DNA from: an uncultured Actinomycetes bacterium
GTDB taxonomy: Bacteria > Actinomycetota > UBA4738 > CALAEC01
Direction of reading: 5' to 3'
Assembly: GCA_964551945.1 (NCBI GenBank)
Contig: CAZKFH010000002.1
Span: 31,785 to 95,784, forward strand
DNA length: 64,000 bases
Below are positions 2,569-58,493 of this stretch, one piece after another (positions within the stretch are counted from its first letter, which is position 1; each line of letters starts with the position of its first letter). The position numbers and the translations under genes were made by a program. Below the pieces are notes generated by a model that worked only from the letters and a program-made list of their open reading frames with translations, was not told where the DNA came from and did not search any database.

Positions 2569-3639
2569 ATGTCCCTCACAACCTTCCTGCGGCACATGGT
2601 GGAGGCGGGAGCCAGCGACCTCCATCTCAAAGCCGGCTTGCCGCCGACGATCCGTGTCGACGGCAACCTCGAGCACGCTCCCTTCCCCCCGCTAACACCG
2701 GCGGACACGGAGAGCGCCGCGAGCGAGGTCCTCTCGGAGACGAAGGCCTTCGAGTTCAAGTCCTCCAACGAGGCGGACGTCGGCTACACGCTTCCGGGTG
2801 TCGGCCGCTTCCGCGTCAACGTCTTCAAGCAGCGCGGGAACGTGAACCTCGCGATCCGCCGCGTGCGCTCCGACATCCCGACATTCGAGGAGCTCCATCT
2901 GCCACCCGCGGTCGAGACCCTCGCCGCGGAGCCCCGCGGACTCGTGCTCGTGACCGGCCCCACGGGGACGGGCAAGACCACGACGATCGCATCCATGATC
3001 GGGTGGATCAACGCGCAGCGACACGCCCACATCGTCACGATCGAGGATCCGATCGAGATCGTGCACGACGACCTGCTCTCGATCGTGGATCAGCGAGAGA
3101 TCGGTCTCGACACGGAGTCGTATCGCACGGCGCTCAAGTACGTGGTCCGCCAGGATCCCGACGTCATCTTCATCGGTGAGATCCGCGACACGGAGACCGT
3201 CGAGGCCGCGCTTCAGGCCGCCGAGACGGGACATCTGGTGATCTCGACGCTGCACACGCTCGATGCAGCCGAGACCGTGAACCGCATCATCGACCTCTTC
3301 CCACCAGAGGTGCACCGGCAGGTCCGCATGTCGCTCGCCGGAACGTTGCGGGGGATCCTGAGTCAGCGCCTCGTTCCTCGCGCCGATGGCCGAGGGCGCG
3401 TGCCGGCCGTCGAGGCCCTCATCAACACCGGACGAGTGGCCGAGCGGATCGCGGACCCCGAGCAGACGAGCACGATCCCGGACGTGATCGCCGAGGGCGA
3501 CTTCTACGGCATGCAGACGTTCGACCAGGCCCTGGTCAAGCTCGTGGCGCAGGGGCTCGTCACACCTGACGACGCCGCCGGGGCCGCCTCGAACCCCCAC
3601 GACTTCCGGCTCACGCTCAAGCAAGCGCAGCTCACCTAA
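2569..3639 (+). CDS. pilT: Type IV pilus retraction ATPase PilT-like (twitching motility protein)
   Basis: Shows the SDLHLKAGLPPTIRVDG motif, Walker A GPTGTGKTT, and the VIFIGEIRD and ISTLHT PilT signature motifs. Confidence 0.8.
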   Translation: MSLTTFLRHMVEAGASDLHLKAGLPPTIRVDGNLEHAPFPPLTPADTESAASEVLSETKAFEFKSSNEADVGYTLPGVGRFRVNVFKQRGNVNLAIRRVRSDIPTFEELHLPPAVETLAAEPRGLVLVTGPTGTGKTTTIASMIGWINAQRHAHIVTIEDPIEIVHDDLLSIVDQREIGLDTESYRTALKYVVRQDPDVIFIGEIRDTETVEAALQAAETGHLVISTLHTLDAAETVNRIIDLFPPEVHRQVRMSLAGTLRGILSQRLVPRADGRGRVPAVEALINTGRVAERIADPEQTSTIPDVIAEGDFYGMQTFDQALVKLVAQGLVTPDDAAGAASNPHDFRLTLKQAQLT

Positions 3640-4035: not shown

Positions 4036-5424
4036 GTGACTCCCGACCCGCCATCGATGGCGGACTTCATCGACCTTCCCACCTCCGCGACGGAGCTCGG
4101 CGCACGCTTCGAGAAAGCGGGGCATCAGCTCTATCTCGTCGGCGGCGCCGTGCGCGGCGCGGCTCTCGGCACGATCGGGGACGAGCTCGACTTCACGACG
4201 GACGCACGGCCGCCCGAGGTCATCCAGATCCTGCAGGGGTGGGCCGAGTCCCGTTACCTCATCGGCATCGAGTACGGCACGGTCGGTGCGCGGCGCGGCA
4301 ACTACACGTTCGAGATCACCACGTTCCGCGAGGACGTGTACCGAGAGGACTCTCGGAACCCGGTCGTCACCTACGCGAAGGACATCGAGACCGACCTCTC
4401 ACGTCGAGACTTCACCATCAACGCGATGGCGGTTCGCGTCCCGGGCGGCGAGTTCGTCGATCCGTTCCGCGGCTTACTCGACCTGGGGCACAAGCGCCTG
4501 CGCACCCCGCTCGACCCCGAGATCTCGTTCACGGACGACCCCCTGCGGATGCTGCGCGCGGCGCGGTTCGTGTCGACGCTGGGACTGGAGCCGGCGCCCG
4601 AGCTCGTCGAGGCGATCGGCCGGCTGCGCGACCGCCTGGAGATCATCTCGCCGGAGCGCATCCGGGCGGAGCTCTCGAAGCTACTCCTTGGCGATCACGT
4701 CGAACGAGGGCTCGCCCTCATCGTGGAGACGGGACTCGCCGAGGAGTTTCTGCCCGAGCTACCCTCCCTGCAGCTGGAGCAGGATCCGGTCCACCGGCAC
4801 AAGGACGTGCTCCGCCACACGTTCGCGGTCGTCAAGCGCTGCGAGCCGAGCGAGCGGCTCCGCCTGGCCGCGCTCCTCCATGACATCGGCAAGCCTCGAA
4901 CACGACAGATCACGCCTGAGGGCGTGCAGTTCCACCACCACGAGGTGGTCGGGGCTCGGATGGCCGAGGAGCGCTTGCGTGCGCTCCGCTACCCCGAGCG
5001 GACGATCCAGGACGTCGTTCGTCTCGTCGAGATGCACCTGCGCTTCCACACCTACCGGCTGGGGTGGTCCGACGGCGCGCTCCGCCGCTACGTTCGCGAC
5101 GCTGGTCCGCTGCTCGACGACCTGAACGCCCTCACGCGCGCCGACTGCACAACGCAGAACCCACAGAAGGCTCGCACCCTCACCGCCCTTCAGGACGAGC
5201 TCGAGGAGCGCATCGCCCGGCTCGCGGAGGAGGAGAACCTCGCGCGGATCCGCCCGCCGCTCGATGGCAACCAGGTCATGCAGCATCTCGGCGTCCCCGC
5301 CGGCCCCGTCGTCGGCGAGGCGCTCACGTACCTGCTCGAGCTGCGCATGGACCGGGGGCCGATCTCTGAGGAAGAGGCGTTCCGGCTCCTCGACGAGTGG
5401 TGGGAGCAGAAGGGCACCGGGTAG
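4036..5424 (+). CDS. cca: CCA-adding tRNA nucleotidyltransferase / poly(A) polymerase with HD domain
   Basis: Has the polymerase-beta head motif LYLVGGAVRG...DFTT and the HD motif LLHDIGKP. This matches the mycobacterial pcnA position next to the mutT-like gene. Confidence 0.8.
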   Translation: MTPDPPSMADFIDLPTSATELGARFEKAGHQLYLVGGAVRGAALGTIGDELDFTTDARPPEVIQILQGWAESRYLIGIEYGTVGARRGNYTFEITTFREDVYREDSRNPVVTYAKDIETDLSRRDFTINAMAVRVPGGEFVDPFRGLLDLGHKRLRTPLDPEISFTDDPLRMLRAARFVSTLGLEPAPELVEAIGRLRDRLEIISPERIRAELSKLLLGDHVERGLALIVETGLAEEFLPELPSLQLEQDPVHRHKDVLRHTFAVVKRCEPSERLRLAALLHDIGKPRTRQITPEGVQFHHHEVVGARMAEERLRALRYPERTIQDVVRLVEMHLRFHTYRLGWSDGALRRYVRDAGPLLDDLNALTRADCTTQNPQKARTLTALQDELEERIARLAEEENLARIRPPLDGNQVMQHLGVPAGPVVGEALTYLLELRMDRGPISEEEAFRLLDEWWEQKGTG

Positions 5425-5433
5425 CTCCGCGCC

Positions 5434-5898
5434 ATGCGGAACAGCGTCGACGTCCACAACTTCCTCCTCGAGCGGGAGGTCCCGCACGAGCTGGTGCCGG
5501 TCCGCGGCCGCTTCCGCTCGCCCGATCGGATCGCCGCGGTCCTGGGGCTGGAGCCGGATCAGGTGGGAAAGGTCGTGATCCTCGGCGCGAGCAAGGGGCT
5601 GGTCGCGGTGCTCGTCTCGTCACACCGTGAGGTGGATCTGCGACGGGTGGCGATCGCCGCGCCGACGCCCACGCTCGTCGAGATGACCTCGGAAGAGGTC
5701 ACCGACGCGACCGACTACTTCGCGGAGAGCGTGCCGCCGGTGGGCCTGCCGGCCGGGACGCAGGCAATCATGGACGGGGGGCTCGCGGAGCAGCAGGTCC
5801 TGTACTTCGCAGGCGGTGAAGCCTCGACGCTGCTCAAGATCCGCCCCGACGACCTCCGCCAGGCAACTGGGGCGAAGGTCGCGAAGGTGGCACGGTGA
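5434..5898 (+). CDS. YbaK/ProX-type aminoacyl-tRNA editing (deacylase) domain protein
   Basis: The 154-aa length and the pattern of YbaK/EbsC proteins (VHNFL...PHELV, KVVILG.SKG) fit this family. Confidence 0.6.
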   Translation: MRNSVDVHNFLLEREVPHELVPVRGRFRSPDRIAAVLGLEPDQVGKVVILGASKGLVAVLVSSHREVDLRRVAIAAPTPTLVEMTSEEVTDATDYFAESVPPVGLPAGTQAIMDGGLAEQQVLYFAGGEASTLLKIRPDDLRQATGAKVAKVAR

Positions 5899-6323
5899 AG
5901 ACACAGCACCGAACCTCCGCGGGTGGCGTACTCGTCCGACCCACGACGACGGGCGTGGAGGTGCTCCTCGCATCGCGACGCACGCGACGAGGCGAGCTCG
6001 TTTGGGGACTGCCGAAAGGCCTCGTCGAGGAGGGCGAGTCCCCGGAGGAGGCGGCGCTGCGCGAGGTCCGAGAGGAGACCGGCCACGCCGGCACGATCCG
6101 CGAGCCCCTCGGGGAGGTCTCTTACTGGTTCGTGTGGGACGGCGAACGCATCCGCAAGACCGTCCACTTCTTCCTGATGGATCACAACGGGGAGCCGCCC
6201 GGGGAGCGGGATCATGAGATGGAGGAGGTCAAGTGGTTCCCGCTGGAGGAAGCGGCGGACATCGCCGGCTTCAAGTCGGAGAAGCAGACGATCCGCAAGG
6301 CTCGAGAGGCAATGGGCTCGTGA
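5895..6323 (+). CDS. NUDIX hydrolase (MutT-like)
   Basis: The Nudix box GLPKGLVEEGESPEEAALREVREETG is present. Its position matches mutT4 in the mycobacterial oriC-proximal block. Confidence 0.75.
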   Translation: MKTQHRTSAGGVLVRPTTTGVEVLLASRRTRRGELVWGLPKGLVEEGESPEEAALREVREETGHAGTIREPLGEVSYWFVWDGERIRKTVHFFLMDHNGEPPGERDHEMEEVKWFPLEEAADIAGFKSEKQTIRKAREAMGS

Positions 6324-8362
6324 AGCGCGCGTTCGCCCTCCTCGCGGTGGCGGCGGTGAGCTCGCCGGCCACGCTGATCCCGACCCCGGCCGTCGCGCAG
6401 GACGGTGAGGCGGTCCGCCTCGTGCTCTTCGAGCAGACCACGACATCCACCGCGGGACAGCCCCTCCAGATCCGGGTTGGCGCCGTGAACGAGACGACGA
6501 CTGCCTTCGAGGATCTGCAGCTCACCGTCGCCGTGTACGCGGCGGTCGGCTCCCGCTCGGAGTACGCGCAGACGCTCACGACCGGGTCGACCTCGCCGCT
6601 GGCGGCCCAGCCCCGGAAGGTTCGGGGTCCGCTCCAAGCCGGAGCGGAGAACGGCCGCTCCTTCCCACCGATCGAGCTTCCCCTGGTCGACGTCGGGGTG
6701 AGCGGCCTGTATCCCGTGACGGTCGAGCTCCGCGCCGACGGGGGCGTCACCCCGCTCGCGGTCCTGCGAACGTCCGTCGTGTTCATCGCGGAGAAGCCGG
6801 AGGTTCCGCTCAACGTCTCTCTCTCCTTCGTGCTCGACCAGCCGATCCGGACACGTCCCGACGGCGTATTCCTGGACGACGCCCTCGAGCGGTCGCTCGC
6901 ACCCGACGGCCGGATGGCGACCATCGTCGGCGCACTCGAAGCCACGCAGGTGCCGGTCACGCTGGCGATCTCACCGGTTCTCCTCGTGGAGCTCCGCGAC
7001 ATGGTCGGGGGATACCGCGTCCAGGAAGGTGACGCGACTCGAGCAGTCCCGTCGGGGGAAGGCGGTGCAGCCGCGGCCGCGGACATGCTCGAGCGGCTCC
7101 GACTGCTTGCCCGCCGGCTCGGAACGGAGTTCGTGGCGCTTCCCTTCGCGTCCCCCTCCATCCCCGCCCTGGTCGAGGCCGGCCTCGGACCGGATCTCCG
7201 GACACACATCGAGCGGGGCAAGGAGCTGGTGCGAGAGATCCTGGCCGTCGAGCCCTCCCCCGCGATCTTCCGTCCGCCGGGATCCGCACTGTCGTCCTCC
7301 GCCCTGGACGTGCTGAACCTCGTCCTGGGCGGAGACGGTCTCACGGAAGCGCTGCTCGTCGATCCCGAGGTGCTCGAGCCACCCGAGGGGTCGCTCCTGT
7401 CGCCGCCTGCCGTCGCCTCGTTCCGGACGGCCAGCGGCTCGATCCCGACCATCGCCCCGGACCCGATCCTCGAGGAGCGGACGGAGTCCCTCCCCGAAGA
7501 CCCGGCGCTCGCGGCCATGTGGACCCTGGGCGAGCTGACCGCTCTCTACTTCGAGCAGCCGAGCCTCGACCGCGGCGCGGCGATCGTGTTCTCCGAGGAT
7601 GAGACCCCCTCGGCCGAGTTTCTCGGCGTCCTCCTGCGCGGCCTGCGCCCCGCGCCCGGCGTCACGGTGCTTCGACCGACGAATGCGAGCCGCGTGGTCG
7701 TCGCGGAGACTCGGGACGACGACCCGCCGCTCGAGGAGCGACGACTCCGGCAGTCCTCACGGTCGGCATCGATCCCCTCGTCCGTGGGAGCGGCCATCGA
7801 GCGCGCGCAAACGGACCTCGAGCGGCTTCAGTCTCTCGAAGCCACCCCGGACCTGATCGACCAGATCCGACGCGACGTGCTTCTCTCCGAGTCGCGGTAC
7901 TTCCTGGGCCGCGAGGATCTCGCACTCGCGTTCCTGTCCGCTGCGAGAGCGGCCGTCGAGGCTGAGTTCGCGAAGATCCAGCCGCCGGACGAGAGCTCGG
8001 TCGTCACGCTCACGTCGCGCGGCGGTCTGATCCCGCTGACGATCCGAAACGACGCCGGCTATCCGGTGCGCGTCCGCATCGCCCTGCGCTCGCCGAAGCT
8101 CGAGTTCCTTGACGGAGCCAATCGAGACGTCCTGCTCGAGCCGCCCGGCCAGCGATTCGACTTCTCGGTTCGAGCCCAGACGACGGGCAAGTTCGAGGTT
8201 GGGGTCGAGGTCCAAACACCGGACGGATTCCCGATCGCCGCATCCACGATCGTCGTGCGATCCACCGCCTACAACCGCGTTGCGCTCATCCTCACGATCG
8301 GCGCTGCTCTGTTCCTGGCCGTGTGGTGGGGAAGGAGGTTCCTGCCTCGGCGGAAGGGCTGA
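6320..8362 (+). CDS. Large exported protein with a C-terminal membrane anchor (Rv3909-like conserved actinobacterial protein)
   Basis: A GTG start at 6320 overlaps the NUDIX stop (GTGA). The signal peptide is VKRAFALLAVAAVSSPA...AVAQ. A C-terminal transmembrane helix LILTIGAALFLAVWW is present. It sits at the synteny position between mutT and murJ. Confidence 0.5.
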   Translation: MKRAFALLAVAAVSSPATLIPTPAVAQDGEAVRLVLFEQTTTSTAGQPLQIRVGAVNETTTAFEDLQLTVAVYAAVGSRSEYAQTLTTGSTSPLAAQPRKVRGPLQAGAENGRSFPPIELPLVDVGVSGLYPVTVELRADGGVTPLAVLRTSVVFIAEKPEVPLNVSLSFVLDQPIRTRPDGVFLDDALERSLAPDGRMATIVGALEATQVPVTLAISPVLLVELRDMVGGYRVQEGDATRAVPSGEGGAAAAADMLERLRLLARRLGTEFVALPFASPSIPALVEAGLGPDLRTHIERGKELVREILAVEPSPAIFRPPGSALSSSALDVLNLVLGGDGLTEALLVDPEVLEPPEGSLLSPPAVASFRTASGSIPTIAPDPILEERTESLPEDPALAAMWTLGELTALYFEQPSLDRGAAIVFSEDETPSAEFLGVLLRGLRPAPGVTVLRPTNASRVVVAETRDDDPPLEERRLRQSSRSASIPSSVGAAIERAQTDLERLQSLEATPDLIDQIRRDVLLSESRYFLGREDLALAFLSAARAAVEAEFAKIQPPDESSVVTLTSRGGLIPLTIRNDAGYPVRVRIALRSPKLEFLDGANRDVLLEPPGQRFDFSVRAQTTGKFEVGVEVQTPDGFPIAASTIVVRSTAYNRVALILTIGAALFLAVWWGRRFLPRRKG

Positions 8363-10020
8363 GCCCCGGCGAGACTCCCGAGGATCGCGGGCCGCAAGCC
8401 GCGGACCCAGACTCGGCGACCGCGCTCGTGCGCGCCACCGCGGGGATGGCGGTCGGGACCGCGCTCTCCCGGCTGACGGGCTTCCTGCGCGTCGCCGCGA
8501 TGGCGTTCGCGCTCGGTGTCGCGGAGAGCCGCCTGAACGACGCCTACAGCGTCGCGAACAACATCCCGAACATCGTCTACGAGCTGATCCTCGGCGGCGT
8601 GCTCACCTCGGTGTTCGTGCCGGTCTTCGTCCGACAGCTCACGAAACGCTCGCAGGAGCAGGCGTGGCGGTCGGCACAAGCCGTGATCACCGTGACGTTC
8701 CTGGTGCTCACAATGGTGACGGTCATCGGGATCCTCGCGGCGCCATGGATCGTGCGCCTGTACACGGCGCGCATCCCCGGCGTGGAGGAGCGAGCTGCCG
8801 TCCAGGAGCTGGCTGCGCTTTTCCTGCGCTTCTTCATGCCCCAGATCCTGCTGTACGGGATCGGCGCGGTCGCATCCGGACTCCTCAACGCTCGGAGACG
8901 GTTCGCGGCTCCGATGTTCGCCCCCATCCTCAACAACGTGATCGTCATCGCGACGTTCCTCGTGTTCGCCTTCATGCCCGGACCCGCCCAGCCCACCCCC
9001 GACACGATCACGTTCGCACAGAAGCTCGTGCTGGCGATCGGCACGACGGCCGGCGTCGTCGCGATGACGCTCGCTCTCTGGCCGTCGCTGCGCCGCGCGG
9101 GGTTCAGGTGGCGCTGGCGGCCCGAGTTCACGAACGAGGCAGTCCGGTCGCTCGTGAAGCTCTCCGGGTGGGCCGTGATGTACGTCGCGTTCAATCAGCT
9201 CGGGCTCCTCGTGGTGATCGTGCTCGCGGGGGAGGTGACCGGCGGATACGCGTCCTACCTGGCGGCGTTCATCCTCTTCCAGCTCCCGCACGCCATCTTC
9301 TCGGTCTCGATCATGACCGCGCTGCTCCCATCGCTGTCCGGAAGCTGGGAGCGAGGTGAGCTCGAGGAGTTCCGGTCGAGCCTCGCGAGAGGGATCCGCA
9401 TCTCCGCGCTCATGGTGCTGCCGGCTGCGGCCGGGTACCTGGCGCTCTCCCGGCCGATCGTACGGCTGTTGCTCGAGCACGGCGTCGCCGGCGCCGAGTC
9501 CTCCGCACTCGTCTCGAAGGTGTTGGCCCTGTTCTCACTCGGCCTCTTCTCGTTCTCGGCATTCATGCTGTTCCTGCGCGCGTTCTATGCGATGTCGGAC
9601 ACGCGAACGCCCGCACTCATCAACGTCTTCGCGGTCGGGCTCAACACGGCGGTCAATCTCCTCCTGTTCCCGGTGCTCGGCGTTCCGGGACTCGCCCTGG
9701 GACACGCGATCGCGTACACGTTCGCCGCGATCACCTCCGCCGTGATCCTCCGCCGACGGCTCGGCGGGCTCGAGGGCGCCGTCCTCGCTCGCGGCATGGG
9801 CAAGATCCTGGTCGCCGCGGCGGCAACGGGCGGCTCGGCGTGGGTCGTCGCCTACCTCAGCGGAAGGGTCCTCGACCCGTCCTCGATCGTGGGACAGGCG
9901 ACCCAAGTCGGGCTCGGGGTGGTGGTTGGACTGCTAACCTTCGTGGTGGCGGCCCTGGTGCTCCGGATAGAGGAGTTCGGCCTGGTGAAGCGCATGATGC
10001 GAGCCCGGTTCAGAACGTGA
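8323..10020 (+). CDS. murJ: Lipid II flippase MurJ (MviN)
   Basis: It is a polytopic MOP-superfamily protein with roughly 14 transmembrane segments. Conserved N-terminal motifs MAVGTALSRLTGFLR are present. It follows the Rv3909-like gene as in mycobacteria. The true start may be downstream of 8323 because of a 40-nt overlap with the upstream gene. Confidence 0.8.
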   Translation: MVGKEVPASAEGLSPGETPEDRGPQAADPDSATALVRATAGMAVGTALSRLTGFLRVAAMAFALGVAESRLNDAYSVANNIPNIVYELILGGVLTSVFVPVFVRQLTKRSQEQAWRSAQAVITVTFLVLTMVTVIGILAAPWIVRLYTARIPGVEERAAVQELAALFLRFFMPQILLYGIGAVASGLLNARRRFAAPMFAPILNNVIVIATFLVFAFMPGPAQPTPDTITFAQKLVLAIGTTAGVVAMTLALWPSLRRAGFRWRWRPEFTNEAVRSLVKLSGWAVMYVAFNQLGLLVVIVLAGEVTGGYASYLAAFILFQLPHAIFSVSIMTALLPSLSGSWERGELEEFRSSLARGIRISALMVLPAAAGYLALSRPIVRLLLEHGVAGAESSALVSKVLALFSLGLFSFSAFMLFLRAFYAMSDTRTPALINVFAVGLNTAVNLLLFPVLGVPGLALGHAIAYTFAAITSAVILRRRLGGLEGAVLARGMGKILVAAAATGGSAWVVAYLSGRVLDPSSIVGQATQVGLGVVVGLLTFVVAALVLRIEEFGLVKRMMRARFRT

Positions 10021-10433
10021 GTAGCGCCCCCCGCCTCCACGACGAGCGAGGCCTGATTGGCTTCTCGCTCATTCGGTGGGTCCTCGTCATCGTGCTCCTC
10101 GGCGTGATCATGATCGAGGGCGGCAGCATCATCTTCACGACCATCGGACTTCAGAACGCGGCGGACGCGGCGGCGACCGAGGCCGCCACCACCTGGAGGG
10201 AGACGCGCGACCTGGAGGCGGCGAGGACCACGGCACTCCGGGCCCTCGCGGTGCGGGAACAGGATGCGGCGAGGATCGTGGACATCGACGCCGACAACAC
10301 CGAGCCGCTCGAGGTGCGGATCACGGTCAGCAAGATGGCCGCGACCCTGATCATCCATCGCATCGGGTTCCTGGAGGACTTCGCCAAGGTCGACGTGAAG
10401 GCTGAGGGTCGCGAGATCGAATCCGGCATCTGA
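10017..10433 (+). CDS. TadE-like (Flp pilus-assembly/pilin-like) membrane protein
   Basis: A GTG at 10017 overlaps the murJ stop (GTGA). The N-terminus ERGLIGFSLIRWVLVIVLLGVIMIEGG matches the TadE_N pattern (ERG-hydrophobic-E.G). Confidence 0.4.
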   Translation: MSSAPRLHDERGLIGFSLIRWVLVIVLLGVIMIEGGSIIFTTIGLQNAADAAATEAATTWRETRDLEAARTTALRALAVREQDAARIVDIDADNTEPLEVRITVSKMAATLIIHRIGFLEDFAKVDVKAEGREIESGI

Positions 10434-10474
10434 CCCGTCACGGCCACAACCATCACGCTCCGTACACTGGTCAC

Positions 10475-11935
10475 GTGAACGCGGAGCACATCCCTCTGGA
10501 AGGGCGTCGGCTCACGGACCGATACGTCCTCCAGGAGGAACTGGCATCAGGGGGGATGGGGGGCCTGTGGCTCGCGCGCGACGAGGTGCTCGGCCGCCTA
10601 GTAGCAGTCAAGGTCCTCCACGAGCATCTCGCCGAAGATGACCAGCTCCTCGAGCGGTTCAGGCTGGAAGCGGTTGCCGCTGCCCGCCTCTCTCATCCCG
10701 CCGTCGTCCGCGTGTTCGACACCGGCATCGACGAGGGCACGTGCTTCATCGTCATGGAGCTCGTGGAGGGCACGTCGGTCGCGGACATGCTCGCCGACCA
10801 GGGTCCCCTGCGACCCGCGGAGGCGGCGCGTGTCGTCCGTGGGGTGCTTCAGGCCCTCTCACATGCTCACCGCGAGGGGGTGATCCACCGGGACGTCAAA
10901 CCCGGCAACATCCTGGTCGGCCGGGACGGCATCGTGAAGCTCGCGGACTTCGGCATAGCGAAGACAGCCTTCGCGGGTGGCGACCTCACGACGACGGGCA
11001 ACCTCCTCGGAACGTCTCGCTACCTCTCCCCCGAGCAAGTCACCGGCGGCGAGATCGACGCGCGATCGGACATCTACGCGGCCGGCGTCGTGCTGTACGA
11101 GCTTCTCACCGGCCGTCCCCCGTTCGAGGCCGAGACACACATCGCCACCGCGACCATGCGTCTCACCGTGGACCCCGCACCTCCGCGGTCCCTCCGGCCG
11201 GGCATCCCGCGCGCGCTGGAGGCGGTTGTGATGAAGGCGCTGGCGCGCGAGGCCGACGACCGGTTCCAGACCGCGGACGAGATGAGCGCCGCACTCGAGC
11301 GAGCCGCTCCCGCCGGGGAGTCGCGACCACCTGTTGTCCGAGAGGAGCACGTTCCGCCCCGGCGCTCCTACAGGTCCTGGATCGTGGTCCCGGCGGTGCT
11401 GCTCCTGCTGGCCGGCATCGCCGTCGGCGCGTTCTTGCTCCTCGAAGGGTTCGGGACCGACCCCGGCGAGGAACCGGGAACCGGTGAACCCACCTCACGG
11501 ATCCGCCTGGAGCAGGCCCTGGCGTACGACCCGATCAGGGGGGACGGGGAGCACGATGAGTCCGCGGGCGCCGCGATCGACGACGACGACATCTCGTACT
11601 GGGAAACAGAGCGGTACAACGAGGACTTCGGGATCGTGAAGGACGGCGTCGGCCTGGTGATCGAGCTCCGCGAGGAGGCGGAGGTGGGTCGCGTTCGCAT
11701 CCTGACGGACACCCCCGGCTGGGATTTCAACATCTTCCTCGCGGACGACCCCGGGGACTTCGACTACACGGGAACGCCGATGCTCGAGGTCGAAGAGGCC
11801 GACGGAGCGGGCACCTACGACATCGATCCTCCGGTCGAGACGAGCTACGTGCTCATCTGGATCACGGGCCTCGTCGAGAGCGACGGGTACCGGGCGTTCA
11901 TCAACGACGTCGACATCCTGCCTCCCGTTGACTGA
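10475..11935 (+). CDS. Ser/Thr protein kinase with one TM helix and an extracellular C-terminal beta-rich (carbohydrate-binding-like) domain
   Basis: Catalytic motifs are intact: VAVK, HRDVKPGN, DFG, SPE. The transmembrane segment is WIVVPAVLLLLAGIAVGAFLLL. The C-terminal domain includes NEDFGIVKDGVGLVIEL...GWDFNIFLADDPGD. Confidence 0.85.
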   Translation: MNAEHIPLEGRRLTDRYVLQEELASGGMGGLWLARDEVLGRLVAVKVLHEHLAEDDQLLERFRLEAVAAARLSHPAVVRVFDTGIDEGTCFIVMELVEGTSVADMLADQGPLRPAEAARVVRGVLQALSHAHREGVIHRDVKPGNILVGRDGIVKLADFGIAKTAFAGGDLTTTGNLLGTSRYLSPEQVTGGEIDARSDIYAAGVVLYELLTGRPPFEAETHIATATMRLTVDPAPPRSLRPGIPRALEAVVMKALAREADDRFQTADEMSAALERAAPAGESRPPVVREEHVPPRRSYRSWIVVPAVLLLLAGIAVGAFLLLEGFGTDPGEEPGTGEPTSRIRLEQALAYDPIRGDGEHDESAGAAIDDDDISYWETERYNEDFGIVKDGVGLVIELREEAEVGRVRILTDTPGWDFNIFLADDPGDFDYTGTPMLEVEEADGAGTYDIDPPVETSYVLIWITGLVESDGYRAFINDVDILPPVD

Positions 11936-12500
11936 CGAGACCGACGCCGAGCTCGTGCGCCGCCATCTCAGCGGCGACCGATCCGCGTTCGGCGTCCTGG
12001 TCGAGCGTCACCAGCGCCGCGTCTACAACCTGGCCTACCGGATGCTCGGACGTCCCGAGGACGCGGCCGACGCGACGCAGGACGCATTCGTGACCGCGAT
12101 GCGCAAGCTCGGCGGATTTCGAGGAACCTCGGCCTTCACGACGTGGCTACATCGCGTCGCTGTGAACATCTGCTACGACGCCCTGCGCAAGCGCGCGCGG
12201 GAGATCCCCGTCGAGGAGCACGAGGAAGCTCCCGTGGCGGGAGCCCCGGACATGGCGGACACGTCGGCGACGGCCATTGACGTCCAGCGAGCTCTCCTCA
12301 GCGTGCCCGAGGAGTTCAGGGCGGCCCTGATCCTGCACGACGTCCAGGGAGTGCCCTACGAGGCGATCGCCGAGGCGCTGGGCGCGCCGCTCGGTACCAT
12401 CAAGTCTCGCTTGCATCGCGGCCGGCTCGCGCTGGCGCGAGCGCTCCGCGGGGAACAACCAGTGGGGTCCCGCGCGTCCAACCGTCGAGGTACACCGTGA
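11928..12500 (+). CDS. ECF (sigma-70 family) RNA polymerase sigma factor, SigM/SigR-like
   Basis: Region 2 (YRMLGRPEDAADATQDAFV) and region 4 (LILHDVQGVPYEAIAEALGAPLGTIKSRLHRGR) are present. It overlaps the downstream anti-sigma gene. Confidence 0.85.
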   Translation: MTDETDAELVRRHLSGDRSAFGVLVERHQRRVYNLAYRMLGRPEDAADATQDAFVTAMRKLGGFRGTSAFTTWLHRVAVNICYDALRKRAREIPVEEHEEAPVAGAPDMADTSATAIDVQRALLSVPEEFRAALILHDVQGVPYEAIAEALGAPLGTIKSRLHRGRLALARALRGEQPVGSRASNRRGTP

Positions 12501-13330
12501 ACGAACACCCCGAAGAGCTGCTGGCCGAATACGTCGACGGATCGCTCGACGCGGACGATCGCGCCCTCGTCGAGGCCCATCTCTCGACGTGCGAGCGCTG
12601 CCAGGAGGACGTGGCCCTCGCGACCGAAGCGCGCTCCGCGCTGGCCTCGCTGCCGGACCTGGAGCCCGCGGCGGGGATCCCGCTTGCGGTTCGCCGGCAG
12701 GCTCGGAGGGCTGCTCCGTCGAAGGTCCAGCGGGTCGCCGGCATCGCCGTCGCCGCGTCGGTACTGGCCGCCGGGATCATCTTTGGCCTCAGCAAGATCG
12801 ATCTCGGCGCGGGAGACCAGCCCGGCAGCGCCACACAAGGGGAAGGGCAGTCCGAGGAAAGCGGGGAGCCTACGCTCGAGGCGGGCGACGAGGCGCCCGA
12901 GTCCTCTGGGGGCGCCGCAGGAGTGCAGGATCTTCGGGCGGTGGCGGCCGCACTCCCGACTTATCTCGAGACCCGACGCGAGTACGACGCGGACGGGCTC
13001 GCGCCACTGGCGCGACGCCTCCGTGACGAGGCACTCGAAGCGCTGGACCTCGGCGTTCAGCCGACCGCGTCGGAGTTCTTCGAGAGCTTCGACCCCGCGG
13101 CGTTCACCGTGCCGGTACGTCAGGCGATCCGCTGCGTCCTCGCCGAGGTGCCGCCCGAGCAGCTCATCGTCCCCTTCCGCATCGAGGCAGCAACGTTCGA
13201 GGGCACACCCGCCTACGTGGCCGCGTTCCTCCAGGGCCCCACCCCCGAGGAGCCCTACGACCGCTTGGTGATCTGGGTCGTGGATCGGGAGGGCTGCTCC
13301 CTGCTGTCCCTCGCGAGTCAGGTCCTCTAG
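12497..13330 (+). CDS. ZAS-type anti-sigma factor (zf-HC2: HLSTCERCQ) with a membrane anchor
   Basis: Has the H-x3-C-x2-C motif and the transmembrane helix VAGIAVAASVLAAGIIFGL. It is translationally coupled to the ECF sigma. Confidence 0.7.
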   Translation: MNEHPEELLAEYVDGSLDADDRALVEAHLSTCERCQEDVALATEARSALASLPDLEPAAGIPLAVRRQARRAAPSKVQRVAGIAVAASVLAAGIIFGLSKIDLGAGDQPGSATQGEGQSEESGEPTLEAGDEAPESSGGAAGVQDLRAVAAALPTYLETRREYDADGLAPLARRLRDEALEALDLGVQPTASEFFESFDPAAFTVPVRQAIRCVLAEVPPEQLIVPFRIEAATFEGTPAYVAAFLQGPTPEEPYDRLVIWVVDREGCSLLSLASQVL

Positions 13331-13370: not shown

Positions 13371-14312
13371 GTGAAAATGAGCACCAACGTGGACGAACGA
13401 AACGTCGTGATCATCGGCTCGGGACCGGCCGGCTACACGGCCGCCCTGTACGCGGCCCGAGCCAACCTGAAGCCGCTCGTCCTCAAGGGCCTCGAGGCCG
13501 GCGGCCAGTTGATGCTGACCACGGAGGTCGAGAACTACCCGGGCTTCCCCGAGGGCATCCTCGGTCCCGAGCTCATGGAGCTGATGGAGAAGCAGGCGGC
13601 TCGCTTCGACGCCGAGATGCTCCATCAGGCGGCGAGCCGCGTCGACTTCTCCGCGGCGCCCTTCGGCGTCTGGTCCGGTGACGAGGAGTTCCGCGCTCGC
13701 ACCGTGATCGTCGCGACCGGCGCCACCGCCCGGATGCTCGGCATCCCCGGCGAGGACCGTTTGCTCGGTCACGGGGTCTCCACGTGTGCGACGTGCGATG
13801 GCTTCTTCTTCCGGGACCAGGAGCTGGTCGTCGTGGGTGGAGGGGACTCGGCGATGGAGGAGGCGATCTTCCTCACCCGTTTCGCGTCGAAGGTGACGGT
13901 CATCCACCGCCGCGGGGAGCTTCGCGCATCCAAGATCATGCAGCAGCGCGCGTTCGACAACCAGAAGATCGACTTCGTCTGGGACACGCTTGTCGAAGAG
14001 GTCGTCGGCAACGGAACCGTCAGCGGCGTGCGTCTGCGGAACGTGAAGAACGACGAGACGAGCGACTTCCCCACGAACGGGCTGTTCGTGGCGATCGGCC
14101 ACACGCCGAACACCGCCGTGTTCGAGGGGCAGCTCGAGATGACGGACGGATACGTGACGGTCCGCGAGCCCACGACCGCGACGAACGTTGACGGTGTCTT
14201 CGCTGCCGGCGATGTCGTCGACTTCAACTACCGACAGGCCATCACGGCTGCCGGAATGGGCTGCAAGGCAGCGATGGACGCGGAACGCTACCTGGAGGCG
14301 CAGGGACTCTGA
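13371..14312 (+). CDS. trxB: Thioredoxin reductase
   Basis: Has the FAD/NAD Rossmann motifs VVIIGSGPAGYTAALYAAR and the redox CATC motif (GVSTCATCDG). Confidence 0.9.
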   Translation: MKMSTNVDERNVVIIGSGPAGYTAALYAARANLKPLVLKGLEAGGQLMLTTEVENYPGFPEGILGPELMELMEKQAARFDAEMLHQAASRVDFSAAPFGVWSGDEEFRARTVIVATGATARMLGIPGEDRLLGHGVSTCATCDGFFFRDQELVVVGGGDSAMEEAIFLTRFASKVTVIHRRGELRASKIMQQRAFDNQKIDFVWDTLVEEVVGNGTVSGVRLRNVKNDETSDFPTNGLFVAIGHTPNTAVFEGQLEMTDGYVTVREPTTATNVDGVFAAGDVVDFNYRQAITAAGMGCKAAMDAERYLEAQGL

Positions 14313-14359: not shown

Positions 14360-14977
14360 GTGGGTCAGCCCGCTCCCCTGGTCCCGCCACCCTCGTACTA
14401 CCGCCCGGTGATCGTCGACGGGTTCACCTTCCCCGTCGCGAGGTCCAACTGGCTCTCCGTGATCGAGATGGAGGAGGACTGGCACGATCCACGGTTCCGC
14501 CTGGTTGGTGACGAGTGGCAGCTCATCGGCGTGCACGAGGGGAACGACATCGTCGCCGAGGAGGGGACGCCGATCCTCTCGATGGGTAGCGGGACCGTGG
14601 AGGCGGTGGGCTGGACCTTCTACTCGGGCACCCGCGTGGGGGTGCGCGGCACGGACGGCAAGTACTATTTCTACGCGCACCTGTCGCGGGTCGCGGACGG
14701 GATCCGGGTGGGCGCGCCCGTGGAGCCGGGGACCGTGCTCGGCGACGTCGGAAACACGGGGTATGGAGACCCCGGGCACGAGGACGAGTTCCCTCCGCAC
14801 CTCCACCTCGGCATCGAGGGGCCGGGCGGCTGGGAGAATCCGTACCCGCTTATGCTGAGGCTGTATCGGTCGTCCGTCCGGGCAACGACGAACGGCGAGA
14901 TGCGGCTCGCGGAGATCGGCCGCTCCGGGGACTCACGAGCGTTCGACCGGCTTGCGGACCGCTTGTACCAGGGGTGA
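14360..14977 (+). CDS. M23 family (LytM/lysostaphin-like) metallopeptidase; the N-terminal signal peptide probably starts upstream near 14309 with a non-ATG start
   Basis: M23 motifs HEGNDI, GNTGYGDPG and HLHLGI are present. In frame upstream of 14360 is LRLIAAAVLAASLAVPAVG with no ATG or GTG. Confidence 0.7.
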   Translation: MGQPAPLVPPPSYYRPVIVDGFTFPVARSNWLSVIEMEEDWHDPRFRLVGDEWQLIGVHEGNDIVAEEGTPILSMGSGTVEAVGWTFYSGTRVGVRGTDGKYYFYAHLSRVADGIRVGAPVEPGTVLGDVGNTGYGDPGHEDEFPPHLHLGIEGPGGWENPYPLMLRLYRSSVRATTNGEMRLAEIGRSGDSRAFDRLADRLYQG

Positions 14978-15062
14978 GGAATAGGCCCCGAGAGGGGAAC
15001 GTTGAAGACAGAGCGCAACGCGCCGAGTGCGACGCGCGCAACACCGAGAAGGAGGACCCGTG

Positions 15063-15392
15063 ATGGGTGCGATCAGTGACGTGACGGATCAGGAGTTCGA
15101 GACCGAGATCTTGAAGTCGGAGAAGCCCGTGCTCGTGGACTTCTGGGCCGACTGGTGCGTGCCGTGCCACATGGTCTCGCCGGTGGTCGAGGAGATCGGC
15201 ATCGACAAGGCCGAGAGCATGAAGGTGGCCAAGCTGAACGTGGATGACAACCCGAACACGGCTCAGCGCTACGGCGTCATGAGCATCCCGACGCTGATCC
15301 TCTTCGTCGGCGGCGAGGAGCGGGCGCGGGTCGTGGGCGCGAAGCCGAAGGAAGCCATCCTGCGCGAGATCGACCAGCACCTCACCGCCTGA
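15063..15392 (+). CDS. trxA: Thioredoxin
   Basis: The active-site variant is WCVPC (WADWCVPCHM). The length fits the thioredoxin fold. The ATG at 15063 is preferred over the track start 15027. Confidence 0.85.
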   Translation: MGAISDVTDQEFETEILKSEKPVLVDFWADWCVPCHMVSPVVEEIGIDKAESMKVAKLNVDDNPNTAQRYGVMSIPTLILFVGGEERARVVGAKPKEAILREIDQHLTA

Positions 15393-15426: not shown

Positions 15427-16527
15427 GTGCAACCAATCAAGCGCGGGCATCGAGGACGACGCGTCGGCGACGTCCAGGCTCGGCTCATCGGGCTCGGCTT
15501 CCGCATCGACCCGTCCGAGGTCGAGGGGCAGACCCTCGGCGAGGCGACCGAGCGAGCCCTGCGCGCGTTCCAGCAGGAGCGGGGACTGCTCGTGGATGGG
15601 GTGGTCGGGCTCAACACCTGGCACGAGCTGATCGAGGCGGGCTACGCACTCGGCGACCGGACCCTGTACCTCCGCCGTCCGTTCACTCGCGGCGATGACG
15701 TCCGCGCGCTGCAGCGCCGGCTGAACCTGCTCGGCTTCGACCCCGGCCGGGAGGACGGCATCCTCGGCGAGCAGACCGGGCGCGCGATCCTCGACTTCCA
15801 GCGAAACGTCGGGCTCCGCGCCGACGGCATCGTGGGCACAACGACGATCGACGCGCTCGATCGTCTGATCGCCGCCCCCGTGACGGAGCGGGGGCGTACG
15901 TCTGTTCGCGAAACCGAAGGCCTCCGCCCGACCGGCGCGTCGCTCGACGGCAGGCGTGTGGCGATCGACCCCGGCCACGGGCCGGACGACCCGGGTTTCG
16001 TGGGGCCCGCAGGATCGAGCGAAGCCGCGCTCGTGTTCGAGCTCGCCGGCTACTTGCGGGACGAGCTGGCCGCTCGGGGCGCGGAACCGATCGTGTTGCG
16101 GGCGCTCGACGAGGACCCCGACTCCTCCACCCGCGCCACCCGAGCGAACGACGCCGACGCGGACGTGCTCATCTCGATCCACCTCAACGGACACGACGAC
16201 CCGTCGGCCGAGGGCTCGTCCTCGTACTACTTCGGGCGCATGGGCGCAGCCTCCGTTGCTGGGCAAGCGCTCGCGGAGCTGATCCAGGATGAGGTCACCG
16301 CCGCGGTCGGTCTGCGCGATGGCCGCGCGCACCCGAAAGCGTTCCCCATCCTGCGAGAAACACGGATGACGGCCGTGCAGATCGAGCCGTGCTTCCTCAC
16401 GAACCCGAAGGAGGAGCTCCTGCTGGGCGAGGAACCGTTCCGGCGTGAGCTCGCGCGCGCCGTTGCTGTCGCCCTCGCGCGGTACTTCGCCGGGCGGGAA
16501 GTCGAGCAGCCTCCGGCCGCGTCCTAG
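15427..16527 (+). CDS. cwlM: N-acetylmuramoyl-L-alanine amidase with two peptidoglycan-binding domains (CwlM-like)
   Basis: Two PG_binding_1 repeats are present (GDDVRALQRRLNLLGFDPG, RNVGLRADGIVG). An Amidase_3 core follows (AIDPGHG...DADADVLISIHLN). Its position after trxA matches mycobacterial cwlM. Confidence 0.8.
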   Translation: MQPIKRGHRGRRVGDVQARLIGLGFRIDPSEVEGQTLGEATERALRAFQQERGLLVDGVVGLNTWHELIEAGYALGDRTLYLRRPFTRGDDVRALQRRLNLLGFDPGREDGILGEQTGRAILDFQRNVGLRADGIVGTTTIDALDRLIAAPVTERGRTSVRETEGLRPTGASLDGRRVAIDPGHGPDDPGFVGPAGSSEAALVFELAGYLRDELAARGAEPIVLRALDEDPDSSTRATRANDADADVLISIHLNGHDDPSAEGSSSYYFGRMGAASVAGQALAELIQDEVTAAVGLRDGRAHPKAFPILRETRMTAVQIEPCFLTNPKEELLLGEEPFRRELARAVAVALARYFAGREVEQPPAAS

Positions 16528-32992: not shown

Positions 32993-33067
<75 letters not shown>

Positions 33068-33089
33068 CCGAGGGCGAAAGGAGCCAGTT

Positions 33090-34645: not shown

Positions 34646-34721
34646 GGGGACGTAGCTCAGCTGGTAGAGCACCGCCTTTGCAAGGCGGGGGTCGCCGGTT
34701 CGAATCCGGTCGTCTCCACCA
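34646..34721 (+). tRNA. tRNA-Ala (anticodon TGC) with the G3:U70 identity pair and encoded CCA
   Basis: The sequence is GGGGACGTAGCTCAGCTGGTAGAGCACCGCCTTTGCAAGGCGGGGGTCGCCGGTTCGAATCCGGTCGTCTCCACCA. Confidence 0.9.
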
Positions 34722-49192: not shown

Positions 49193-50818
49193 TCATGGCC
49201 GCTCCGCGGCTCGCCGCTTGGCCTCCGTGCGTCGCTCCGCCTCGAGACGCTCGAGCTTGACCGACGAGTGGTCAACGAAACGCATCGCGTCGGCGATCGC
49301 GCGATGTCCGGCCTGCTCGGCGATGAGGTGGTGCATCTCCTGACAGACGCGCCGGTACGTCGGATGGCCCTGGGGGGTGGTTCGCAGCTCGATGACATGC
49401 ATCGCCTCGCGGGCGTTCATCTGCATCACGAAGCGGATCCGGTACGCCATCGAGACGGCGTACTGACCGGCCTGGTCCAGCCCGCGCATGACGAGCTCGT
49501 CGTACAGGGTGGCTGACTCGGCCATCACACGATCCCAGTCGTCGGCCGCTCCGGCTTCCTCGACCTCGGGCGGCCGCTCGAAGCCGTGGATCGGCGACAG
49601 CCGTTGCCACTCGAGCGTGAGGAGGCGGTGGCGCTGGAGGTCCCGGAACGCGCCGTAGTCGCAGAGCACGTCGAAGCGGTACGAGGTCCGTTCGAACGCT
49701 CTCCCCGGCTTGTGCCGGCGATTGATCCTCTCTCCCACGTAGGTCTTCAGGACCCTGGCGCGCTCCTCGCTGTTCATGCCGCGCACGATGTGGAGAAGCC
49801 GGTCGTCGGGCACATCCGCGACCGAGTACAGCGCTGCGGCGACGACTTTCACCTCGCCGTCAGCGTCGAAATCGGTGAGCGTCACCTCGGGGCGCGTCGG
49901 GGGTGCGTCAAGGAGCTCGTTCACGAGGAAGCTGGCCGTTCGAAGCTCCGTCATGTCCTCTCGGGTCTTCTCCAGGTAGCGCGTCCATGCTCCACCGCGA
50001 TCTTCCACGTCGACGCGCGTGAGGAAGGCGGGGATCACCGCGCGCAGCTCCACGAGCATGAGGTCCGCGAACGACCGCACCTCCTCCAACGGATGGGCAC
50101 GCATGCGGAGGAGCAGCTGCTCGTACCCCTGCCCCGTTCCGTAGATCCCGACATTCGAGCGGGTCGCCGCGGGCAGCAATCCGCGCAGGGCGTCACATGC
50201 CTTCGCGCGGATCGTCGAGCGATAGACGAAGTCGCTGTCGCTCGGGTCCCTCGGGTAGCGCTCCTGGAGATGCTCCTGCAGCGGCTCAAGCCACTTCGCG
50301 TACGTCTCGAACGCGCTGTCGAGCGTTCGCTCGTAGCGCTCCGCGAGCCCCGCCCGGACCACCTCCGGCGGGGTGACGTAGCGCCACCGGCCACCCGGCC
50401 GGTCGTCGTACGGCACGTAGCGCGTCGACTGCTCGAGGTACGCCATCAGCCGTCCCCACTCGAGGACCTTGGCCAGAGGCTGTGAGGATTGCTCGCACGC
50501 GAGGTGCACGCCGCCGAGCTGCGCGACGGAGTCGTCGCCGTACTCGAGGAAGACACGCTCGTAGAGGTCCTCGGCTCGGGCTGCGCCGACGTTGTCGAGG
50601 AGCTGCTCGCTGCCGCGCTCCGCATGATCCGCGAACTCGTCGAGGAAGAGCCTGCGGAGGGACTTGGGGGATCGCGAGTACCGTGCGAACAGGGCGCCCT
50701 TCGTGACCTCGGGAAGGTTCACGAGGGCGAAGACCGGTTGATCGAGGTTCGAGAAGTGCGGGCGCAGGAGCCGTCGTTCCTCATCGGTGAACTCTTCCGG
50801 AGCGAACCAGAGCGTCAC
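49193..50818 (-). CDS. thyX: Tandem-domain FAD-dependent thymidylate synthase ThyX-like protein (N domain degenerate, C domain with RHR motif)
   Basis: The C-half motif FDVLCDYGAFRDLQRHRLLTLEWQRLS aligns with ThyX [29 protein letters not shown]. Both halves contain an ARxxLPxAT......TGxxR......R block. Confidence 0.55.
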   Translation of the reverse strand: MTLWFAPEEFTDEERRLLRPHFSNLDQPVFALVNLPEVTKGALFARYSRSPKSLRRLFLDEFADHAERGSEQLLDNVGAARAEDLYERVFLEYGDDSVAQLGGVHLACEQSSQPLAKVLEWGRLMAYLEQSTRYVPYDDRPGGRWRYVTPPEVVRAGLAERYERTLDSAFETYAKWLEPLQEHLQERYPRDPSDSDFVYRSTIRAKACDALRGLLPAATRSNVGIYGTGQGYEQLLLRMRAHPLEEVRSFADLMLVELRAVIPAFLTRVDVEDRGGAWTRYLEKTREDMTELRTASFLVNELLDAPPTRPEVTLTDFDADGEVKVVAAALYSVADVPDDRLLHIVRGMNSEERARVLKTYVGERINRRHKPGRAFERTSYRFDVLCDYGAFRDLQRHRLLTLEWQRLSPIHGFERPPEVEEAGAADDWDRVMAESATLYDELVMRGLDQAGQYAVSMAYRIRFVMQMNAREAMHVIELRTTPQGHPTYRRVCQEMHHLIAEQAGHRAIADAMRFVDHSSVKLERLEAERRTEAKRRAAERP

Positions 50819-58491: not shown

Positions 58492-58493
58492 GC

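Follow-up and report, generated by a model that had tools for sequence, protein, structure and literature searches.

A probable free-standing, catalytically competent counterpart of the MurJ-fused MviN pseudokinase module in an uncultured actinomycete

Background

In Mycobacteriales, the lipid II flippase MurJ is extended at its C-terminus by a module consisting of a pseudokinase, a transmembrane helix and a carbohydrate-binding domain, and the fused protein (MviN, Rv3910 of Mycobacterium tuberculosis) is phosphorylated in trans by the kinase PknB and docks FhaA (PMC12599244, PMC10166564). Few bacterial pseudokinases have a role that has been worked out, and that of MviN is one of them. The subject of the present study is a gene at positions 10475-11935 of a 64,000-nucleotide stretch of DNA from an uncultured Actinomycetes bacterium (contig CAZKFH010000002.1 of assembly GCA_964551945.1, positions 31,785 to 95,784 of the forward strand; hereafter the window). 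This gene, which lies downstream of a stand-alone murJ, is probably a free-standing and, judging by its sequence, catalytically competent ortholog of the module that Mycobacteriales carry fused to MurJ.

MviN and the related actinobacterial pseudokinases of the ActPs3 family are fully degenerate, with a deleted activation loop (bioRxiv 10.1101/2025.01.12.632604; PMC12599244), and 97-100% of ActPs3 members are without the VAIK Lys, the HRD Asp and the DFG Asp (bioRxiv 10.1101/2025.01.12.632604). Members other than MviN are said to lack its carbohydrate-binding domain (PMC12599244), and, according to a study of C. diphtheriae, only arabinogalactan-containing organisms have the extended MviN (PMC10166564). 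Neither PMC12599244 nor PMC10166564 mentions split or active counterparts. The MviN entries in the PDB (3OTV, 3OUK, 3OUN and 3UQC) all represent the pseudokinase and none the extracellular domain (ECD) (PMC3601408); in S. coelicolor, murJ is SCO3894 (bioRxiv 10.1101/2025.10.02.680127). A preliminary description of the window, made from the sequence alone, had proposed that the locus holds an ancestral or alternative version of the MviN regulatory module with an active kinase. It had also ascribed the recruitment of FhaA to the ECD of MviN, which is wrong, as recruitment is through the phosphorylated pseudokinase tail (pT947) (PMC12599244, PMC10166564).

A separate receptor kinase gene downstream of murJ

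Genes of the window were taken as predicted open reading frames (ORFs) and annotated with Pfam and NCBIfam, and all genes of the murJ block lie on the plus strand. The elements at issue are as follows.

8323-10020, plus strand: murJ, 565 amino acids (aa) (Pfam MurJ, 1.7e-98; TIGR01695, 344 bits)
10017-10433, plus strand: TadE/G-like single-pass membrane protein, 138 aa, with a GTG start (Pfam Tad PF13400)
10475-11935, plus strand: receptor-type Hanks Ser/Thr kinase, 486 aa, consisting of kinase, transmembrane helix and CBM32-like ECD (Pfam Pkinase, 4.6e-47)
10508-11314, plus strand: catalytic kinase domain of the preceding gene, residues 12-280 (match to the PknB kinase domain, 3.2e-71)
11375-11443, plus strand: transmembrane helix, residues 301-323 (hydropathy scan)
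11447-11932, plus strand: CBM32/discoidin-like ECD, residues 325-486 (structural model, Foldseek and family profile)
11928-12500, plus strand: ECF sigma factor in the SigM position (Pfam Sigma70_r2 and Sigma70_r4_2)
12497-13330, plus strand: anti-sigma factor (Pfam zf-HC2, 1.2e-9)

The murJ product is occupied by the flippase core from end to end: Pfam MurJ spans residues 69-510, and TIGR01695, whose cut-off is 235.6 bits, covers residues 35-555, leaving no room for a C-terminal pseudokinase or an extracellular extension. The end of murJ was thus correctly placed at 10020 in the preliminary description. The fusion to MurJ that is a feature of the MviN module is absent, and the kinase is encoded by a separate ORF 455 nucleotides (nt) downstream of murJ, with one gene between the two. 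A public protein collection (source NCBI) already contains identical sequences for the products of 565, 138 and 486 aa.

The closest solved relative of the kinase in a search of the PDB is the kinase domain of M. tuberculosis PknB. The catalytic residues can be read directly from the sequence (K46 of VAVK, E65, H138-R-D140, N145, D158-F-G160 and S185-P-E187), as the preliminary description had maintained for the VAVK, HRD, DFG and SPE motifs, and the only departure seen is in the Gly-rich loop (ASGGMGG), where Ala takes the place of the first Gly. Conservation was assessed in 119 full-length orthologs with 52-78% identity to the window kinase, the few of them that carry a source name being proteins of metagenome-assembled genomes named 'Actinomycetota bacterium'. 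K46, E65, H138, D140, N145 and D158-F-G160 are present in every ortholog (119/119), R139 in 118, and the residues of S185-P-E187 in 118 to 119. Together these residues show a complete Hanks catalytic core that is under strong purifying selection, which is the pattern of a working enzyme, and the kinase is predicted to be catalytically competent.

The activation loop likewise is of full length, with 30 aa from DFG to SPE as in PknB, and carries three consecutive threonines, T172, T173 and T174, that are retained in 117, 116 and 119 of the orthologs, respectively. MviN, by contrast, has VALT and LSIDHPSR at the corresponding positions and no DFG (PMC12599244), and ActPs3 bears its hallmark deletion where the window kinase has the near-invariant TTT. 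Because its motifs are intact, its activation loop is complete and it is not fused, the window kinase falls outside ActPs3, with which it shares the transmembrane helix, the ECD and the genomic slot. It also resembles MviN in keeping the N-lobe dimer-interface residues (by alignment; for MviN, PMC12599244). The domain order of kinase fold, transmembrane helix and ECD is common to both proteins. By alignment, R16, L39 and D82 are the counterparts of R10, L33 and D76 in the back-to-back dimer interface of PknB.

On the C-terminal side of the kinase domain, a hydrophobic stretch at residues 298-328 (hydropathy maximum 2.76) contains a single transmembrane helix at approximately residues 301-323, and a beta-rich domain of 162 aa follows, so that the transmembrane helix and extracellular beta-rich domain of the preliminary description are both present. 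The layout of kinase, transmembrane helix and putative extracellular glycan sensor is that of PknB, as are the activation-loop and dimer-interface residues, but the window protein has a single CBM32/discoidin-like ECD where PknB has PASTA repeats. No PASTA repeat is matched by Pfam in the kinase, and the NCBIfam model for PASTA kinases (NF033483, PknB_PASTA_kin) aligns with the kinase part only, over model positions 2-277 and with 371 bits, under its cut-off of 450. Since the window encodes its own PASTA-bearing PknB and a PknA-like kinase, the murJ-linked kinase is a third Ser/Thr protein kinase and not the PknB ortholog.

Correspondence to the C-terminal module of fused MviN

The preliminary description had suggested structure prediction of the C-terminal domain and its comparison with MviN. 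An AlphaFold model of residues 325-486 from a 38-sequence alignment has a pLDDT of 90.2 and supersedes an earlier model built from 5 sequences (pLDDT 68.7). The top Foldseek matches are CBM32 modules, namely 2JDA (5.5e-8), the CBM32 of AlyQ (7D29, TM-score 0.66/0.79) and the CBM32s of CpGH89, and E-values of the CBM32 and F5/8 type C matches range from 5.5e-8 to 1e-5. The predicted fold can therefore be assigned confidently to the CBM32/discoidin type, a galactose-binding-domain-like beta-sandwich. At the level of sequence the relationship is more distant: a search of the ECD against the PDB gave no match, Pfam F5_F8_type_C (PF00754) scored 18.3 bits, under its gathering score of 28.2, and the alignment with F5/8 type C domains includes the A.DG..T.W motif while profile matches to solved domains stay below threshold. 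Several orthologs carry a precomputed PF00754 match. The window domain thus shares fold and motif with CBM32 and F5/8 type C domains and differs from CBM32 in being joined through a transmembrane helix to a kinase and not to a glycoside hydrolase.

The link to MviN is family-specific. A 108-aa stretch of the MviN pseudokinase, taken from the PDB alignment, served as a query with which 80 Mycobacterium mviN loci were fetched, and an ECD family profile was built without mycobacterial sequences. This profile matches six fused mycobacterial MviN proteins with 83-95 bits, at their extreme C-termini, as compared with only ~20 bits (E>=0.002) for any solved CBM32 or F5/8 type C domain; in pairwise comparison, the window ECD is 28% identical to that of M. 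asiaticum MviN over 145 aa (E=2e-12). The preliminary description had allowed for a generic kinase with no similarity to the MviN C-terminus, and the similarity just described is what was found. An exhaustive search with the profile recovers 4480 family representatives (at 50% identity) with E<=1e-3, of which 2947 reach E<=1e-10; each of ten members of ~500 aa that were checked consists of Pkinase, transmembrane helix and ECD, some metagenomic ECD fragments bear the JGI label 'lipid II flippase', and within the window only the kinase ORF is matched.

Colinearity points the same way. When the 1197-aa fused MviN of M. asiaticum is compared with all ORFs of the window, it matches murJ (query 33-535, 168.7 bits) and, in a single colinear alignment that takes in pseudokinase, transmembrane helix and ECD, the kinase ORF (query 718-1183, 56.4 bits); no other window ORF was matched, and neither PknB nor PknA was reported. 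In Mycobacterium, one ORF encoding MurJ, pseudokinase and ECD is followed by sigma, trxB and cwlM genes, as in the window, where the kinase stands after the MurJ core and before a SigM-like sigma gene, with trxB and cwlM further on, a place equivalent to the MviN slot between the MurJ core and sigM/rsmA-trxB-trxC-cwlM, and the window sigma factor aligns with the sigma gene 3' of mycobacterial mviN with 110-126 bits. The homology of the ECD, the colinearity and the downstream gene order together identify the kinase gene as the counterpart, in position and in domains, of the C-terminal module of MviN.

These observations also bear on whether the gene is instead an ordinary PknB- or PknL-like paralogue that gained a common discoidin domain by chance and is kin to the MviN module through superfamilies only. 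Such an origin would fit the closeness of the kinase domain to PknB in the PDB, its 371-bit kinase-only match to the PASTA-kinase model, the wide distribution of F5/8 type C and CBM32 domains and the occurrence of ECD-bearing kinases in other genomic contexts. It is nevertheless very improbable, given that the ECD match to MviN is specific to the family (94 bits against ~20 bits for solved CBM32 and F5/8 type C domains), that the slot is identical to and colinear with that of fused MviN, that pseudokinases in the same slot and with the same ECD match the MviN pseudokinase across the whole domain, and that the protein has no PASTA domain in a genome with its own PASTA-bearing PknB.

The same slot in other Actinomycetota

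A metagenome scan with the full kinase yielded 5 informative orthologous loci, the other 75 being generic kinases without the ECD. Among the loci compared (designated by L numbers, with their kinases or pseudokinases designated by P numbers), the window order of murJ, Tad-like gene, active kinase-ECD, sigma, anti-sigma and trxB recurs in L003, L006/L007, L088, L089, L090 and L171, and L092, which starts inside the kinase gene, has the downstream part of this order only. The order is also kept in L170, where the gene behind the Tad-like gene and before the sigma gene encodes a degenerate kinase, P0095, with HGD, DFR and a short activation loop. P0026, P0146 and P0152 show partial motif losses, and with P0095, P0097, P0106, P0125 and P0145 they make up a graded series from intact to fully degenerate within the family.

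At the degenerate end of this series are separate genes that encode outright pseudokinases. In Blastococcus brunescens (L004) murJ is followed by a separate pseudokinase-transmembrane-ECD gene, part of which is named 'discoidin domain-containing protein' at NCBI. In L168 a pseudokinase-ECD gene (P0145), an ECF sigma gene and a gene for an RsmA_C anti-sigma factor follow in order, and in L169 the order is DUF6049, murJ, DegV, pseudokinase-ECD (P0106) and sigma. P0145 matches the solved MviN pseudokinase over the full domain (2e-15), and its C-lobe prefers MviN over PknB (6e-4 versus 0.26). These three genes are like the window gene in being separate, in following murJ and preceding a sigma gene or trxB, and in belonging to the same ECD family, and unlike it in having lost the K, HRD and DFG residues that the window gene retains; their loci are without the TadE/G-like gene, L169 having DegV in its place.

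In the complete-genome record of L004 (CP141261, 5200-11900), the coding sequences of murJ, of the pseudokinase-ECD gene and of cwlM are each broken up among several frames, which could reflect sequencing or assembly errors or real pseudogenisation. A DegV gene precedes the (pseudo)kinase-ECD gene, with murJ or the Tad-like gene on its other side, at 5983-6927 of L171 and at 3362-4231 of L169; its presence in these two other lineages indicates that the genes separating murJ from the module vary.

The split arrangement is thus not special to the window genome, since split pseudokinase versions exist too, and the same slot in other Actinomycetota is shown to hold active, partly decayed or fully dead kinases, as read from their motifs. 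The distribution indicates that Actinomycetota widely encode the pseudokinase and sensor module in a separate gene beside murJ, and that catalytically intact versions, as predicted from their motifs, are common, with at least 119 ortholog clusters in the window clade alone. In a neighbor-joining tree of the ECDs, degenerate forms are scattered among active ones, and the mycobacterial ECD stands beside that of P0145 and that of the active P0025. This scatter suggests that pseudokinases formed independently and more than once, and that catalytic decay is recurrent across the family; taken together, the motif comparisons indicate a decay that is graded and apparently recurrent.

As pseudokinases can only derive from kinases, the polarity of the change is likely, and the active split state is likely to be ancestral to the pseudokinase module. 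Of the 'ancestral or alternative' active version of the preliminary description, the split counterpart with intact motifs therefore stands as observed, and the words 'active' and 'ancestral' hold as probable interpretations.

Several observations weigh against the orthology of the window gene with the MviN module and against the history just outlined. Many genes that are not known to cooperate are syntenic across Actinomycetota within the oriC-proximal block to which murJ belongs. BLASTP did not align the window kinase domain with the MviN pseudokinase domain, and phmmer favoured the murJ-linked kinase domain over the window PknB as a match to MviN by only ~5 bits; of nine pseudokinases, eight gain a few bits with the murJ-linked kinase domain relative to the window PknB or PknA, and the ninth prefers PknB. 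In view of the missing BLASTP alignment and these small differences, the kinship of the kinase domain itself to MviN is not claimed as strong evidence. No counterpart of MviN T947 was found after the kinase domain in the 119 orthologs, whose juxtamembrane region (277-300) is unconserved and holds no conserved Thr, and this is a further apparent difference from MviN. The ECD tree is crude and carries no support values. ECD-bearing kinases are also encoded away from murJ, by ddl and the pknB-pbpA-rodA-pstP-fhaB-fhaA genes (L001, L005), and in L002 a transmembrane and ECD protein with no kinase (1613-2311) lies directly before an ECF sigma gene, with no murJ seen in the upstream DNA; together these cases suggest that the ECD may have been shuffled between kinases.

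As to the records themselves, the gene calls of the ECD kinases are split by frameshifts in L001 (~9034-10618) and in L005 (7073-8540). In L002, whose assembly looks error-prone, the sigma gene is followed by trxB, trxA, parBA and dnaA.

A sigma factor as a possible partner

A different view of the locus is that the gene encodes a generic sensor kinase whose true partner is the ECF sigma/anti-sigma pair: the CBM32-like domain would sense envelope damage, phosphorylation would fall on the zf-HC2 anti-sigma factor (or on the sigma factor itself), a SigM-like regulon would respond, and adjacency to murJ would be inherited synteny. The packing of the genes lends this view some weight. The kinase stop and the sigma start overlap by 8 nt (11928-11935), and the sigma and anti-sigma genes by 4 nt; the same 8-nt overlap is found in L006 (4027-4034) and L170 (1949-1956), which suggests a conserved translational coupling of kinase and sigma factor. 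Of the loci whose sequence extends downstream, nearly all have an ECF sigma gene after the one for the (pseudo)kinase-ECD protein, murJ and the kinase can be separated by other genes (Tad-like, DegV), and the protein of L002 stands before a sigma gene without murJ upstream. In Mycobacteriales, however, the module is fused to MurJ and not to the sigma or anti-sigma factor, which is a classic signature of a functional link to MurJ, and the fused module is tied to peptidoglycan synthesis through FhaA (PMC12599244, PMC10166564). Blastococcus L004, moreover, is the exception to the sigma gene rule, keeping the murJ-pseudokinase pair with no recognisable sigma gene after it. On balance, a sigma-directed kinase with an incidental murJ neighbor seems improbable, although a role with MurJ and a role with the sigma/anti-sigma pair are compatible and both could be true.

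The small gene between murJ and the kinase

The small gene is called as a longer ORF, 9840-10433, in the predicted set, and this longer version was rejected on third-position GC content (GC3), which is 0.42 in 9840-10016 and 0.90 from 10017 on, the latter being like that of the neighboring genes; the drop in the upstream extension places the true gene, which encodes 138 aa, at 10017-10433. The GTG with which it starts overlaps the TGA stop of murJ (GTGA), and a 41-nt gap separates it from the kinase. The small TadE- or pilin-like membrane protein overlapping the murJ stop, as the preliminary description had it, is thus recovered, with a narrow pass for Pfam Tad PF13400 (24.5 bits against a cut-off of 22.3) and scores below cut-off for Pfam TadE PF07811 (17.1 bits against 22.9) and TIGR03816 (19.9 bits). 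Orthologs with 26-58% identity occupy the same position in L006, L088, L089, L090, L170 and L171, three of the six match PF13400, and their alignment defines a common layout of an N-terminal [DE]RG, one transmembrane helix, (E/D)GGSI.F(T/A) and L.N/D.A(D/E).AA. The Blastococcus, P0106 and Mycobacterium loci have no such gene, and its presence between murJ and the module is a difference from MviN.

Pfam's assignment to the TadE/G-like proteins, together with a gene for a T2SSE-family ATPase 6.4 kb upstream (2569-3639), would accord with a true Tad or type IV pilus minor pilin that is a mere passenger unrelated to MurJ and the kinase. Type IV prepilins have a prepilin-peptidase site with Glu at +5 after Gly. 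In the ortholog alignment of the small protein no Glu was found at +5 after the invariant RG, where LIGFS, IVASF and similar stretches stand instead. The location is not that of a tad or cpa locus either: the neighbors are murJ and the kinase, the T2SSE ATPase is the only pilus-type gene noticed, and genes for tadB/C, flp or a prepilin peptidase were not noticed next to the small gene, other pilus genes not having been specifically searched for. In six loci, at identities as low as 26%, the gene keeps its position and its overlap with the stop of murJ, and both the TIGR03816 and the Pfam TadE scores are below their cut-offs. A pilin passenger is accordingly an unlikely identity for the protein, and the gene is better regarded as a real, clade-specific and translationally coupled membrane accessory whose part in any mechanism is putative. 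The positive-inside rule predicts a location outside the cell, shared with the kinase sensor, for the C-terminal ~100 aa of the protein.

Wider gene context

The murJ region is a conserved oriC-proximal block of Actinomycetota. Upstream of murJ the window contains the following genes.

2569-3639, plus strand: T2SSE-family ATPase (PilT/TadA-like), 356 aa, directly upstream of the CCA-adding enzyme gene (Pfam T2SSE, 5.3e-49)
4036-5424, plus strand: CCA-adding or poly(A) polymerase-like protein
5434-5898, plus strand: tRNA_edit protein
5895-6323, plus strand: NUDIX protein
6233-8362, plus strand: DUF6049 membrane protein, Rv3909-like (Pfam DUF6049, 5.6e-14)

A DUF6049 gene is found upstream in the equivalent position in L090, L169, L171 and L004. 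Downstream of the anti-sigma gene, all identified by Pfam, are the genes below, whose order is the same in L006 and L171.

13371-14312, plus strand: trxB
14360-14977, plus strand: M23 peptidase
15027-15392, plus strand: trxA
15427-16527, plus strand: cwlM-like amidase

The M23 peptidase gene between trxB and trxA is a property of the window clade and is seen also at 6430-7113 of L006 and 10946-11635 of L171; in the Mycobacterium loci examined, the interval from trxB to cwlM gave no M23 match.

Like M. tuberculosis, the genome encodes PknB, PstP and FhaA, in a second cluster on the opposite strand, again identified by Pfam.

50865-52565, minus strand: pknB with PASTA domains
52621-54075, minus strand: pknA-like gene
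54079-55563, minus strand: pbpA
55557-56906, minus strand: rodA
56903-58033, minus strand: pstP
within 58030-58737, minus strand: fhaB
58494-59198, minus strand: fhaA (FhaA_N and FHA)

Beside this cluster, an ORF of 541 aa (49193-50818, minus strand) matches Thy1 (ThyX) in its C-terminal part only, best over residues 316-502, and has either a long unexplained N-terminal region or a start called too far upstream. Elsewhere in the window, genes for tRNA-Ile(GAT) (32993-33069) and tRNA-Ala(TGC) (34646-34721), both on the plus strand, are separated by 1.6 kb that contains ORFs. The usual site of this tRNA pair is the spacer of rRNA operons; Rfam found no rRNA gene in the window.

A possible mechanism

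If the kinase is a catalytically competent counterpart of the MviN module, a route from the cell wall to MurJ can be sketched. The CBM32-like domain would bind a cell-envelope glycan, either peptidoglycan, as precursor or as strand, or a different polysaccharide of the wall, and binding would promote PknB-style back-to-back dimerisation through R16, L39 and D82, followed by autophosphorylation of T172-T174. The active kinase might then phosphorylate cell-wall targets or directly recruit FHA proteins, of which the window encodes FhaA and FhaB, and the invariant T172-T174 could stand in for a docking site of the T947 type. In this way the export of lipid II by MurJ, and possibly the translationally coupled SigM-like regulon as well, would respond to the state of the wall. 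The module of the mycobacterial lineage would have lost catalysis, fused to MurJ and become a passive phospho-acceptor scaffold for PknB and FhaA.

A bolder version, which we put forward only tentatively, is that MurJ, the TadE/G-like protein as an adaptor and the active CBM32-sensor kinase form a self-contained envelope-sensing unit, in which this kinase, and not PknB, would read the wall glycan and gate both lipid II flipping and the SigM-like regulon. The unit would then represent a living ancestral state, from which repeated and independent transitions from kinase to pseudokinase would have led, in the mycolata, to the fusion with MurJ.

Significance

The finding offers evolutionary and comparative insight into a known regulatory module and does not describe a new type of system. 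The active and decayed forms in the murJ slot would provide a natural series for how a receptor kinase turns into a scaffold, and would bear on the origin of the MviN regulatory tail. An active counterpart may also serve as a tractable handle on the ligand of the sensor domain and on the protein partners of the module.

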